Origin: Planctomycetota bacterium
GTDB taxonomy: Bacteria > Planctomycetota > B15-G4
NCBI GenBank assembly: GCA_029259695.1
Contig: JAJDEQ010000062.1
Span: 4,620-68,619 of the forward strand
Length of the DNA: 64,000 bases
Reading direction: 5' to 3'
The notes below the pieces were generated by a model, which ran no database searches, was not told the DNA's origin, and saw only the letters and a list, made by a program, of their open reading frames with translations. Position numbers and translations under genes: made by a program. Positions 31,531-35,810 of the stretch are shown here, piece by piece (position 1 is the stretch's first letter; the number at the start of each line of letters is the position of its first letter).

Positions 31531-32310
31531 GTGACCCGCTCGTCCAAGCGCCCGCGGCGCCTCGAGTACATGGGCGCCATGGCAGCCGGCCTGGCCCACG
31601 AGGTCAAGAACCCGCTCAGCACCATGACGGTCAACCTGCAACTCCTGGCAGAGGACTTCGCCACCCCCCAGTCGCAGGTGGAGGAACGCACGCTGCGCCG
31701 CGCGCACCTGTTGCTGGGGGAGGTCAAGCGCCTCGACGGCATCGTCAACGACTTCCTCGAACTCGCACGAGGCTACGAGATCCAGCCGGAGACGGTCGAC
31801 CTCGAGCTGTTGATCACCGACCTGTTGCGTTTCGTCGAGCCGGAGAACGAGCGCCTGGGCATTCGCGCTCGGAGCCTGCTGGCGGCCGACGCGCGGCTGG
31901 TGCTGGCCGACCCGAAGTTCCTGCGGGTGGCGCTCAACAACCTGGTGGTGAACGCCCAGCAGGCCATGGCCGAGGAGGGTGGCGAGCTGCTGCTCGAGAC
32001 GCGGGTGCGCGGGCGCCTGGTGGAGGTGCGCGTGACCGATACCGGGCCCGGCATCCCGCCGGACAAGCTGGAGCAGATCTTCATGCCGTTCTGGTCGAAC
32101 AAGCAGGGCGGGACGGGTCTGGGCTTGCCGATGACGCGCCGCATCGTCGAGGAGCTGGGCGGTGAGATCCTGGTGCAGTCCGAACTGGGGCGCGGCACGC
32201 GCTTCGTGCTCAGCGTGCCCAAGCTCCCGGATCAGCTGCCACCGGCCACGCCCGATCCCACGGCGGAGGGCCCCGGCGCTGCGGAGCGCAACGGGGGCAA
32301 CCCGGCATGA
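31531..32310 (+). CDS. Cytoplasmic histidine kinase consisting only of DHp and CA domains
   Basis: AHEVKNPL H-box about 20 aa from the GTG start; NLVVNAQQAM, DTGPGI, FMPF, GGTGLGL; GGAG SD; no TM or PAS segment. Confidence 0.85.
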   Translation: MTRSSKRPRRLEYMGAMAAGLAHEVKNPLSTMTVNLQLLAEDFATPQSQVEERTLRRAHLLLGEVKRLDGIVNDFLELARGYEIQPETVDLELLITDLLRFVEPENERLGIRARSLLAADARLVLADPKFLRVALNNLVVNAQQAMAEEGGELLLETRVRGRLVEVRVTDTGPGIPPDKLEQIFMPFWSNKQGGTGLGLPMTRRIVEELGGEILVQSELGRGTRFVLSVPKLPDQLPPATPDPTAEGPGAAERNGGNPA

Positions 32311-33671
32311 GCGCCACACCCGTCTCGATCCTGATCATCGACGATGACGCGGCCCACGCGCAGAGCCTGGCCGACGGCCTCGAGACCCTCGGCTACGAGG
32401 CGACCGTGGTGACGTCCGGGCAGGCGGGGCTGGTCGCCGTCGAGCAGGGCACCTGGGACCTCGTGCTGACCGACCTGCGCATGGCCGACGTGGACGGCAT
32501 GGACGTGCTCGCGGGTGCGCGCCGACGAGGCGACACCGAGGTGATCATGATCACCGGCCACGGCTCGGTGGAGAGCGCGGTGGAGGCCATGCGTGCCGGA
32601 GCCGCGCACTACATCACCAAGCCCGTCAACATCATGGAGCTGCGCGAACTCGCCAAGCGGACGGTCGAGAAGCAGCTGCTGAAGCGCCGCAACACCGAGC
32701 TCGAAGCGCAGCTCGACGAGCGCTACGCCTTCGACAAGATCATCGGCCGCAGCGAGGCCATGCAGGCGGTCTTCCGGGTCATGCGCCAGGTTGCGCGCAC
32801 CGACGTCACGGTGCTGGTCATGGGTGACAGCGGCACGGGCAAGGAACTCGTGGCCCGGGCGATCCACCAGAACAGTCCGCGACGGAACGCGCCCTTCATC
32901 GCGCTGAACTGCGCGGCGCTGCCCGAGGGCCTGCTCGAGAGCGAGTTGTTCGGGCACGAGCGGGGCGCTTTCACCGGCGCGACCAACCGCAAGATCGGCC
33001 ACATCGAGAACGCCCAGGGCGGCACCCTGTTCCTCGATGAAGTGGGGGACATGCCGCTCAGCACCCAGGTCAAGATGCTGCGCGTCCTCGAGCAGCGGGA
33101 GATCGTGCGCGTGGGGTCGAGCACGCCGATCCCGGTCGACATCCGGGTGTTGGCCGCGACCAACAAGAACCTGACCGAGGAGGTGGCCGAGCGGCGCTTC
33201 CGCGAGGACCTCTACTTCCGGCTCAAGGTCGTCTCGATCGAGCTGCCGCAGTTGCGTGAGCGCGTGGTCGACATCCCCTTCCTGGTGGATGCGTTCCTGC
33301 GCGAACTCGTCGAGCAGCACGGCACCGACGTGCGCGGCGTCTCGGCCGATGTGATGCGTGTGCTGGAGGCCCAGCCCTGGCCCGGCAACGTGCGCGAGTT
33401 GCGCAACGTGATCGAGAACATGGTCGTGACCGGCAGCCACGAAGTGCTGCAGCTCTCCGATCTGCCGACATCGGTGGGCGGTGAACCGAGCGTCGCGCCG
33501 CTCAAGACCGCCTCCGGCTCGCTGGCGGGGCGCACTGCGGCGGACGTGGAGCGCGAGCACATCAGCGCCACGCTCGAACTGGTCGGCGGCAATCGGGCCA
33601 AGGCGGCGCGCATGATGGGCATCGGCGAGCGCACGCTGTATCGCAAGATCAAGGAGTACGACCTGCGCTAG
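32307..33671 (+). CDS. Sigma54-dependent response regulator (NtrC/AtoC family)
   Basis: REC domain (IIDDD, TDLRM, KP), GDSGTGKE, GAFTGA, FLDE, WPGNVREL, HTH 'RTLYRKIKEY'. Confidence 0.95.
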   Translation: MSATPVSILIIDDDAAHAQSLADGLETLGYEATVVTSGQAGLVAVEQGTWDLVLTDLRMADVDGMDVLAGARRRGDTEVIMITGHGSVESAVEAMRAGAAHYITKPVNIMELRELAKRTVEKQLLKRRNTELEAQLDERYAFDKIIGRSEAMQAVFRVMRQVARTDVTVLVMGDSGTGKELVARAIHQNSPRRNAPFIALNCAALPEGLLESELFGHERGAFTGATNRKIGHIENAQGGTLFLDEVGDMPLSTQVKMLRVLEQREIVRVGSSTPIPVDIRVLAATNKNLTEEVAERRFREDLYFRLKVVSIELPQLRERVVDIPFLVDAFLRELVEQHGTDVRGVSADVMRVLEAQPWPGNVRELRNVIENMVVTGSHEVLQLSDLPTSVGGEPSVAPLKTASGSLAGRTAADVEREHISATLELVGGNRAKAARMMGIGERTLYRKIKEYDLR

Positions 33672-33694
33672 CAGCGGTGCTCCCGCGAGCGCCG

Positions 33695-33740
33695 CCCTGT
33701 CATTGTGGCAGGGTGCGGACCGCCCGGTGCCACTTTGGCC
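33695..33740. promoter_or_regulatory. Tandem palindromic enhancer-like boxes TGYCA-N3-TGGCM
   Basis: CCCTGTCA-TTG-TGGCAGGG (33695-33713) and TGCCA-CTT-TGGCC (33728-33740); centres 30 bp apart. Confidence 0.6.
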
Positions 33741-33807
33741 CGGCCTGGAGCCGCCCTGAACCGGCCCGGAGGGCCTGGATCGCGGTGCTTCATGCTCCCC
33801 GGCCGTT

Positions 33808-33822
33808 TGGCACGCGGTTTGT
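33808..33822 (+). promoter_or_regulatory. Putative sigma54 (-24/-12) promoter of dnaK
   Basis: TGGCAC-GCGGT-TTGT versus consensus TGGCAC-N5-TTGC; one mismatch at the -12 C. Confidence 0.55.
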
Positions 33823-33893
33823 TTGCCTCCGATGCAGCGGTTCGGCCTGCCCGGGAGCGGCAGAGCACCCCGGTGGACCGACAAGGAGATCTC

Positions 33894-35810
33894 ATGAGTG
33901 ACCACATCATCGGCATCGACCTCGGCACCACGAACTCCGTCGTGGCCGTCATGGAGGGCGGACAGCCCCAGGTGATCACCAACCCCGAGGGGCACCGTGT
34001 GACCCCGTCGGTGGTGGCGTTCACGACGGACGGCGAGCGGCTCGTGGGCCAGCCCGCCCGGCGCCAGGCGATCACGAACCCGCAGCGCACGATCTACTCG
34101 ATCAAGCGCTTCATGGGTCGTCGTCACCACGAGGTCAGCTCCGAGGAGAAGCTGGTCACCTACGACGTGACGGGCGGCCAGAACGATCCGGTCAAGGTCC
34201 TGATCGACGGCAAGGAATACACGCCGCAGGAGATCTCGGCGATGATCCTCGCCGACCTCAAGGGCACTGCCGAGGCGTACCTCGGCACGAAGGTCACGCG
34301 CGCCGTGATCACGGTGCCGGCGTACTTCAACGACAGCCAGCGCCAGGCCACCAAGGAGGCGGGCGAGATCGCCGGCCTCACGGTGGAGCGCATCGTCAAC
34401 GAGCCCACCGCCGCCTGCCTCGCCTATGGTCTGGAGAAGGACAAGAGCGGCAAGCTGGCCGTGTTCGACCTGGGCGGCGGGACCTTCGACATCTCGATCC
34501 TCGACGTCGGCGACGGCGTGTTCGAGGTCAACGCCACGAACGGTGACACGCACCTCGGCGGCGACAACTTCGACGACGTGCTGATCGACTTCGTGGCCGA
34601 CGACTTCCAGCGCGACAACGGCGTCGACCTGCGCAAGGACGTGATGGCCCTGCAGCGCCTCAAGGAGGCCTGCGAGAAGGCCAAGTGCGAGTTGTCCTCC
34701 ACGCCCCAGACCAACATCAACCTGCCCTTCGTGACGGCCGACCAGAGCGGGCCGAAGCACCTCAACGTGAACATCAGCCGGGCCAAGTTCGAGGAACTGG
34801 TCGAGCCGCTGGTGGAGCGTTGCCGCAAGCCGTGTCTCGACGCCATGGCGGACGCCGGCCTCAGCCCCAGCGAGGTGGACGAGGTGATCCTCGTCGGCGG
34901 CAGCACGCGCATCCCCGCCGTGCAGGCGCTGGTGAAGGAGGTCTTCCAGAAGGAGCCCGGCCGCAACGTGAACCCGGACGAAGTCGTGGCCATGGGGGCC
35001 GCCGTCCAGGGCGCGGTGCTCGCCGGCAAGGTCGACGACGTGGTGCTGCTCGACGTGACCCCGCTGTCGCTCGGCATCGAGACGCTGGGTGGCGTCATGA
35101 CCCGGCTGATCGACCGCAACACGACCATTCCCACCTCCAAGAAGGAGGTCTTCTCCACCGCCGCCGACAACCAGCCGAGCGTGGACATCCACGTCCTGCA
35201 GGGTGAGCGCGAGATGGCCAACGGCAACCGCACGCTGGGTCGCTTCCGCCTCGAAGGGCTGCCGCCGGCGGCCCGCGGGGTGCCCCAGGTCGAGGTCACG
35301 TTCGACATCGATGCCAACGGCATCCTGGCCGTGAGCGCCAAGGACCTCGGCACGGGCAAGGAACAGAAGATCACCATCGAGGCCAGCTCGGGCCTGTCCG
35401 ACGCCGACATCGATCGGATGAAGCAGGAGGCCGAGGAGCACGCCGATGAAGACAAGAGCGCGCGCGAGCTGATCGACCTGCGCAACCAGGCCGAACAGAC
35501 CATCTACCAGACCGAGAAGTCACTCGACGAGCACAAGGACAAGCTCGAGGAGGAGACGGTGCTGGCCATCGCGAGCGCTCGGGAGAAGCTCGAGCAGGTT
35601 GCGAAGGAAGATGACGCGGAGGCGATTCGTCAGGGTCTCGACGAGTACACTCGCGCGGCACAGAAGCTGGCCGAGGTGCTCTACGCCCAGCAGGCCGAAG
35701 CGGGTGCTCAGCCCGGCGGCCCGGGCGGGCCCGCAGGCGACGGCGCGCCCGGTGGTGAATCGGAGACGAAGGAAGACATCATCGATGCCGACTTCGAGGT
35801 CAAGAGCTGA
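33894..35810 (+). CDS. dnaK: Chaperone DnaK (Hsp70)
   Basis: [50 protein letters not shown]. Confidence 0.98.

Follow-up and report, generated by a model that had tools for sequence, protein, structure and literature searches.

NtrC-type bacterial enhancer-binding proteins (bEBPs) are phosphorylated on an aspartate by a cognate kinase, form oligomers on tandem upstream sites and, with DNA looping, drive the ATP-dependent remodeling of closed promoter complexes through their GAFTGA motif. For example, enteric NtrB/NtrC controls nitrogen assimilation at glnAp2, where a kinase and a REC-AAA+-HTH_8 regulator are combined with palindromes arranged in tandem about 100 nt ahead of a -24/-12 promoter. 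The two-component pair HsfB/HsfA of Myxococcus xanthus, the subject of work by Ueki and Inouye in 2002, reportedly includes an NtrC-type regulator that activates the heat-shock gene lonD through sigma-54. In Flavobacterium psychrophilum, sigma-54 (SM4) promoters were found at the mapped transcription start sites (TSSs) of groES-groEL, dnaK, grpE-dnaJ, clpB, lon, and htpG (Guerin et al. 2021, PMC9723704), and a survey of sigma-54 regulons with position-specific scoring matrices predicted sigma-54 promoters at chaperone genes for Planctomycetota (PLoS One 2025, PMC12316311). The atoS and atoC genes of Chlamydia trachomatis are heat-induced, and its hrcA-grpE operon is reported to have tandem sigma-66 and sigma-54 promoters (PMC8762339). 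Heat shock of the planctomycete Rhodopirellula baltica induced clpB, groEL, dnaJ, grpE, hsp20, and dnaK without regulation of rpoH, rpoE, or rpoN, and the study speaks of 'a significantly different response cascade' (PMC2754498). Here, we analyzed a dnaK locus with an adjoining two-component pair in an uncultured Phycisphaerales planctomycete, located in a 64,000-nucleotide stretch (hereafter, the window; C192:4620-68619) of a 6.05-Mb metagenome-assembled genome (MAG; 70.0% GC, 233 contigs, 87% complete).

The locus consists of three plus-strand genes in tandem, encoding a histidine kinase, an NtrC-family activator, and DnaK. We read it as the control module of a sigma-54-dependent, heat-shock-type chaperone regulon that works by the mechanism proposed below, and we put the probability of this reading at roughly 70%. 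Sequence and comparison supply its basis: the parts of the locus and their conservation, a motif found across the regulon, an rpoN gene in the genome, and searches in which hrcA, rpoH, and CIRCE (controlling inverted repeat of chaperone expression) were not found. The features of the locus, in window coordinates, are as follows.

31531..32310, plus strand: sensor-less histidine kinase (DHp and CA domains only), from Pfam; the longest open reading frame (ORF) spans 31447-32310.
32307..33671, plus strand: NtrC-family response-regulator enhancer-binding protein (REC, AAA+, HTH_8), from Pfam.
33695..33713, no strand assigned: candidate enhancer box 1, the 19-bp palindrome CCCTGTCATTGTGGCAGGG, from sequence and from the equivalent box in the gaps of relatives.
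33728..33740, no strand assigned: candidate enhancer box 2, TGCCACTTTGGCC (TGCCA-CTT-TGGCC), from sequence; its center is 75 nt upstream of the -24 GG.
33808..33822, plus strand: sigma-54-type promoter TGGCACGCGGTTTGT, from sequence; -24 GG at 33809-33810 and -12 GT at 33821-33822.
33883..33889, plus strand: ribosome-binding site AAGGAGA, from sequence, 4 nt ahead of the dnaK ATG.
33894..35810, plus strand: dnaK (Hsp70), HSP70 match of 859 bits, ATG at 33894.

We placed the probable start of the kinase gene at the GTG at 31531 because its orthologues (about 240-260 aa) begin just ahead of the H-box, by about 10-20 residues. A Pfam scan of the kinase returned HisKA (PF00512, residues 43-108, 7.7e-12) and HATPase_c (PF02518, residues 155-259, 5.1e-26; numbering of the long form) and no further domain; the H-box (LAHEVKNPL) can be read in the translation, as can the N, G1, F, and G2 boxes. 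No more than about 40 residues lie ahead of HisKA, and there is no sensor or transmembrane input domain, which is typical of the family and does not define it. The top NCBIfam matches of the kinase were the AtoS and ZraS kinase cores, far under their cut-offs.

The kinase and the activator are translationally coupled via an ATGA overlap, in which the activator ATG overlaps the kinase stop codon by 4 nt. The activator matched the receiver family PF00072 (86.7 bits), Sigma54_activat (PF00158, 247 bits, positions 1-168 of 168), AAA_lid_14, and HTH_8 (PF02954, 55.4 bits). Its GAFTGA loop (220-225), Walker A motif (GDSGTGKE, 173-180), and Walker B motif (D244/E245) are invariant across 18 orthologues, as are the receiver residues D12, D13, D56 (the acceptor Asp), T83, and K105. 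All NCBIfam equivalog scores fell below their cut-offs (NtrC: 430.3 vs 558.6; AtoC: 423 vs 714; ZraR: 396.7 vs 760). The protein is an NtrC-family bEBP of the response-regulator class but none of NtrC, AtoC, or ZraR by this measure. Its nearest named relative, at 66% identity, comes from an uncultured Phycisphaerales bacterium MAG, which places this planctomycete in the class Phycisphaerae.

The gap between activator and dnaK (33672-33893) is 222 bp long. Box 1 has the core TGTCA-TTG-TGGCA (TGTCATTGTGGCA, 33698-33710), centered 105 nt upstream of the -24 GG; both boxes fit TGYCA-N3-TGGCM, and their centers are 30 bp apart. The promoter has the spacing GG-N10-GT, i.e., the G of the -12 element is kept and the consensus C is replaced by T. 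By the standard -24/-12 numbering, the dnaK TSS is predicted at about 33834, which would leave a 5' untranslated region (UTR) of about 60 nt. The pattern TGGCA[CT]-N5-TTG[CT] matched 24 times in the genome on both strands, with the dnaK promoter among these matches. Searches of 31200-36100 with E. coli-like patterns, which may not fit Planctomycetota, found neither a sigma-70 consensus nor an intrinsic terminator. An RNA thermometer in the dnaK 5' UTR was considered and rejected, given that the predicted fold of 33834-33900 was no better than those of shuffled sequences (z = 0.82). These results bear out what the initial annotation had described from the window: a kinase with DHp and CA domains only, starting at 31531, and a GAFTGA activator directly ahead of dnaK, separated from it by 222 bp with two related palindromes 30 bp apart (105 and 75 nt ahead of the promoter) and a GT at -12.

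Based on a search of 40 relatives, clear activator orthologues (58-76% identity) are present in two families. The order kinase-activator-dnaK was found in 15 of 17 complete loci, comprising all 12 in the family of this genome and 3 of 5 in the second family; one further orthologous locus is truncated by a contig end and was left out of this count. In two more families, the best matches (about 50% identity) lack both neighbors. All 16 gaps between activator and dnaK (our genome and 15 relatives) contain TTGGCA[CT]-N5-TTTG[TA], located 75-176 nt ahead of the ATG (12 gaps ending in T were flagged by a regular expression and the four with TTTGA were read from the printed sequences), and at least one box of the TGCCA-N3-TGGCAG type lies upstream of it in each case. 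Second boxes like box 2 (GGTGCCGTTTTGCCAG and similar) are readable in the printed gap sequences of relatives. The gaps otherwise vary widely (196-388 bp) and differ in composition, with AT-rich genomes included.

The second position of the dnaK -12 element is T in 12, A in 4, and C in none of the 16 Phycisphaerales loci. Within the same family, C is kept at this position in the groES (16/16) and clpB (12/12) promoters and in the hsp20 promoters that were found. Because the relatives are not independent, we count the T/A at the dnaK -12 as one conserved lineage trait, not as 16 separate events.

For a wider sample of the phylum, we took 60 genomes belonging to other families and compared 60 dnaK loci, eight of them cut by contig ends. 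A strict -24/-12 match was present within 405 nt upstream of dnaK in 21 loci. As controls, the opposite strand and the region one kb farther upstream each had a match in 1 of 60 loci, and shuffled sequences averaged 0.9. Homologues of both kinase and activator lie directly upstream of dnaK on the same strand in 15 of the 60 loci, and a divergent arrangement occurs in one. Ten loci that have the pair and no strict match show similar TGCCA-N3-TGGCA boxes together with a variant -24/-12 element, as judged by eye and hence subjectively. In several other families of Planctomycetota, a lone homologue of the sensor-less kinase directly precedes dnaK, and in two of these the stretch between the two genes contains GG-N10-GC with TTGGT as the -24 part. 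A separate contig search, used for naming the gene order and not for its distribution, returned mostly paralogous NtrC-family genes, with synteny in 1 of 80 loci (a Phycisphaerales MAG).

Four further chaperone loci of this genome carry the same combination of boxes and promoter (contigs are numbered with the prefix C; distances run from box centers to the -24 GG).

C180, receiver-only gene-groES-groEL: promoter TGGCACTCGATTTGCT; boxes TGTCATTTAGGCA and CGCCATTCTGGCA, 147 and 102 nt upstream.
C114, clpB: promoter TGGCACGCCCGTTGCA; boxes CGCCTTAATGGCG and TGCCTTAATGGCA, 94 and 74 nt upstream.
C76, two hsp20 genes: promoter CGGCACAGTCGTTGCT; boxes CGCCAATATGGCG and TGCCGTTGTGGCG, 140 and 119 nt upstream.
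C207, third groEL: promoter TTGGTCCGGGCTTTGCT; boxes CGCCATAGTGGCA and TGCCATGCTGGCA, 136 and 92 nt upstream.

As read from sequence, several core chaperone operons of one genome are located behind -24/-12 promoters: dnaK, REC-groES-groEL, groEL3, clpB, and the two hsp20 genes. Two boxes with the consensus YGCCW-N3-TGGCR are present at all five promoters (5/5), and the promoters other than that of dnaK have the full GG-N10-GC. A degenerate regular expression for the box was uninformative in a genome of 70% GC (490 sites, 98 of them non-coding), and we therefore relied on a position weight matrix (PWM) and on the combination of box and promoter. The PWM was built from one box per activator-dnaK gap in the 15 relatives, leaving out our own genome, and was used to scan the 6 Mb. 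The highest rank genome-wide was dnaK box 1 (19.0 bits), with the same site on the other strand at rank 5; ranks 2 and 4 were the two boxes ahead of the stand-alone groEL3, rank 6 belonged to the groES operon, and rank 3 was an unrelated site called coding. None of the ten other high-scoring sites that were checked (nine called non-coding and the rank 3 site) had a -24/-12 match within 350 nt. No gene class besides chaperones carried box and promoter together in these scans. Gene calls came from a crude caller based on GC content at third codon positions, which mislabeled some upstream regions as coding (for example, at groEL3, C100, and C226).

The third groEL (C207:33770-35395) has an in-frame TAG at codon 143 and is either a pseudogene or the result of a MAG assembly error. 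Another contig (C209:1-4200) opens with the GGM-repeat tail of a GroEL C-terminus, followed by groES2-groEL2-dnaJ-grpE, for which no promoter signal of their own was found; the assembly may have broken at the groEL repeats, in which case these genes would continue the C180 operon. In the genome-wide HSP70 search (three matches, the third weak), dnaK was the sole canonical gene found. The second HSP70 gene (C53), which has neither boxes nor promoter, was taken as a probable hscA outside the regulon, and the gene ahead of it reads by eye as encoding a J-domain-like (HscB-like) product.

The other members of the regulon show similar conservation in relatives. In each of the 16 family genomes, the receiver-only gene, groES, and groEL follow one another in this order, preceded by TTGGCA[CT]-N5-TTTGCT (one genome has ATTGCT). 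Of these 16, the upstream groESL box GCTGTCAWWTCGGCA was flagged in 15, and the box that pairs with it, 45 bp farther downstream, in 11. All 12 relatives with a clpB gene have a -24/-12 match ending in TTGC ahead of it (11 with TTGGCA[CT], one with TTGGTA), and the gene was not found in three incomplete relative genomes. For hsp20, six of eight matches in relatives have a sigma-54-type promoter. The receiver-only regulator that heads the groESL operon (C180:10750-12689) is 142 aa long, with the acceptor Asp and the conserved Ser and Lys present, and is a candidate feedback element. We rejected the idea that it is a close copy of the activator receiver: the two share 25% identity over 64 residues and their alpha-1 residues differ, such that the sequence gives no support for a kinase common to both proteins.

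Sigma-54 itself is encoded on contig C48 (rpoN: Sigma54_DBD 190.9 bits, 486-aa open frame without stops). Among the 13 Sigma54_activat matches listed, four are strong (220-250 bits) and one scores 103 bits; the genome has four full-scoring bEBPs and one weaker one. Four other strong sigma-54 promoters (C226, C100, C86, and C225) each have a different palindrome of their own, and none of the four has a chaperone-type box at enhancer distance. On C226 (1-5000), repeats of TGCCAACGG precede a cytochrome c gene and closely follow a HAMP-kinase/NtrC pair, and on C100 (26000-35000), TGTCCAG..CTGGACA precedes the gene of a 522-aa protein of no family; the bEBPs on these two contigs each adjoin their own sigma-54 promoter. 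The C86 promoter precedes a gene for an FG-GAP repeat protein, and the C225 promoter, with TTGT at -12, a gene for a 1242-aa Wzy_C/TPR protein. In one giant bEBP (C152:25192-30204, 1670 aa), Ser/Thr kinase, TPR, GAF, AAA+, and HTH_8 domains are fused, and a second one (C100:31396-36165, about 1590 aa) is known here from its Sigma54_activat match.

In the 87%-complete genome, no match to hrcA (PF01628) was found, and the best match to the proteobacterial RpoH model scored 149 bits (cut-off: 323). With approximate consensus sequences, CIRCE had no match genome-wide at up to one mismatch per arm, HAIR (HspR-associated inverted repeat) had one at the same tolerance, on C76 at a distance of about 3 kb from the hsp20 promoter, and no sigma-32-like motif was present in the activator-dnaK gap. 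The initial annotation likewise noted no CIRCE repeat in the gap. The comparisons which that annotation had called for gave positive outcomes as well, i.e., an rpoN gene with an open frame, a motif conserved in 16 of 16 orthologous loci, synteny in two families and in a quarter of the phylum loci (15/60), and the same boxes with -24/-12 elements at groESL, the third groEL, clpB, and hsp20. Its central proposal, that sigma-54 activates dnaK through the adjacent pair in a little-described circuit, is largely supported by the regulon motif, the conservation, and rpoN; the label 'little-described' was overstated, because sigma-54 chaperone promoters had been mapped in Flavobacterium (PMC9723704) and predicted for Planctomycetota (PMC12316311).

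We propose the following mechanism. A cytoplasmic kinase that has DHp and CA domains only and an NtrC-type regulator would be co-translated from a message made from their own upstream promoter. The phosphorylated regulator would oligomerize on paired 13-bp palindromes (YGCCW-N3-TGGCR) located 75-150 nt upstream of -24/-12 promoters, where its GAFTGA loop and ATP would open sigma-54 holoenzyme complexes. Predicted targets are dnaK, REC-groES-groEL (perhaps reading into groES2-groEL2-dnaJ-grpE), the third groEL, clpB, and the two hsp20 genes. The non-consensus -12 element may make a leakier promoter for dnaK, which is always needed. Our best guess is that the sensor-less kinase is controlled by a partner protein or by chaperone titration, with an intrinsic temperature dependence as the alternative. 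Chaperone titration has known parallels in DnaK/sigma-32, DnaK/HspR, and GroE/HrcA.

These elements can be joined into a wider picture, in which the bare kinase is the thermometer of a two-component loop like that of sigma-32 and DnaK, complete with a receiver-based shut-off, a leaky dnaK promoter, and an ancestral origin. Free DnaK or GroEL may keep the kinase (or the regulator) inactive until unfolded proteins titrate the chaperones off. The receiver-only protein of the groESL operon may end the response as a phosphate sink or connector, and the T/A that only dnaK has at -12 may loosen the promoter lock and provide basal expression of an essential gene. The module may be the ancestral heat-shock regulator of Planctomycetota, perhaps of the Planctomycetes-Verrucomicrobia-Chlamydiae (PVC) superphylum, and chlamydial AtoS/AtoC may be what is left of it. 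That all of this holds jointly seems doubtful to us.

Several points weigh against reading the locus as the control module of the chaperone regulon. In two of the five loci of the second family, kinase and activator are kept with no dnaK within 1.5 kb, and a kinase homologue alone precedes dnaK in 6 of the 60 phylum loci. That the dnaK-adjacent activator, and not one of the three other full bEBPs, binds the boxes is suggested by adjacency and elimination, and heat or unfolded protein is the probable inducing signal as judged from the gene content of the regulon alone. The GT at the dnaK -12 makes promoter strength and activator dependence uncertain. Read-through from the regulator operon could add basal dnaK expression because no terminator was found in the gap, and the E. 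coli-like sigma-70 and terminator patterns may misfit Planctomycetota. At 87% completeness, hrcA and rpoH count as not found, not as proven absent.

An alternative that we regard as unlikely keeps the regulon and assigns it to another bEBP, either one of the two giant kinase-TPR-GAF-AAA+ fusions or a 332-aa receiver-less protein on C143, leaving the dnaK-side pair to control something else. Such bEBPs do exist in the genome, lone kinase homologues adjoin dnaK elsewhere in the phylum (6/60), and many genomes have a sigma-54 promoter at dnaK without an adjacent activator. However, the boxes begin 27 nt past the activator stop codon and travel with the activator in 15 of 17 complete loci, and similar boxes were seen by eye in ten more phylum loci in which the pair precedes dnaK. 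We favor the adjacent activator because it adjoins the boxes, the four other promoters differ in their palindromes, and two other bEBPs (C226 and C100) adjoin promoters of their own with different palindromes.

About equally improbable, in our view, is the case in which the wiring is as proposed and the signal is something other than heat or unfolded protein, such as growth phase, envelope or osmotic stress, or a developmental cue, with chaperones as one output of a broader program. A kinase without a sensor domain names no signal in its sequence, and the F. psychrophilum sigma-54 promoters were induced on blood agar, at high osmotic pressure, and by plasma exposure (PMC9723704). Nevertheless, every locus found with box and promoter is a core chaperone gene, and no alternative heat-shock regulator was found. 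A weak or inactive -24/-12 element at dnaK, with the gene expressed mainly by read-through or from an unrecognized housekeeping promoter, would fit the GT at -12, the lack of a detected terminator between regulator and dnaK, and the need for DnaK at all temperatures, but is very improbable given the lack of a sigma-70 consensus in the gap and the retention of TTGGCA[CT]-N5-TTTG[TA] in 16 of 16 otherwise divergent gaps, AT-rich genomes included, which is unexpected for a dead site.

Upstream of the locus, the window contains a PTS EIIA-2 (PtsN-like) gene and an unusually long ORF of 174 aa with an N-terminal ribosomal S21 domain (28715-30314). The gene between these and the kinase (30322-31389, minus strand) encodes a Sua5/YciO/YrdC domain fused to a low-molecular-weight phosphotyrosine phosphatase domain and is divergent from the kinase gene.

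For the question of how Planctomycetota induce their chaperones, the locus supplies a concrete candidate master regulator, motif, and regulon that are directly testable. It also offers a natural example of a kinase without input domain that would control an essential stress response, and its promoter-specific -12 variant could serve the study of basal versus activated sigma-54 transcription. Among open-access papers and bioRxiv preprints, we found none that assigns a dnaK-adjacent kinase/activator pair or a TGCCA-N3-TGGCA enhancer to a planctomycete chaperone regulon.

Compared to enteric NtrB, which has a PAS sensor, PII input, and another binding motif in its system, the kinase described here has no sensor, and the activator falls below the NtrC cut-off (see above). 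The M. xanthus HsfB is reportedly a hybrid kinase, with a single protease gene as the known heat-shock target, whereas here a bare DHp and CA core is paired with what appears to be the whole core chaperone set. Like F. psychrophilum, this planctomycete would place its chaperone regulon under sigma-54 instead of sigma-32 or HrcA. The former belongs to Bacteroidota, and its evidence is at the TSS level, unlike that presented here, which comes from sequence; the available text of that paper mentions three PF00158 proteins, ties none of them to the regulon, and describes neither an enhancer motif nor a dnaK-adjacent kinase or regulator (PMC9723704). The statement on Planctomycetota in the 2025 survey is made at the COG level and, in the available text, names no activator, enhancer motif, kinase, or dnaK synteny (PMC12316311). 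C. trachomatis, a member of the same PVC superphylum, has AtoS/AtoC (CtcB/CtcC) with sigma-54 and keeps HrcA as its chaperone regulator (PMC8762339), whereas no hrcA was found here; the AtoS and AtoC models are among those best matched by our pair, far below their cut-offs. The kind of system, a sigma-54 chaperone regulon, is already known, and the locus is a well-conserved instance of it. What is new is a candidate dedicated two-component master regulator with a sensor-less kinase, an enhancer motif, and a five-locus regulon, together with the -12 T/A variant specific to dnaK and the receiver-only gene that heads the groESL operon.

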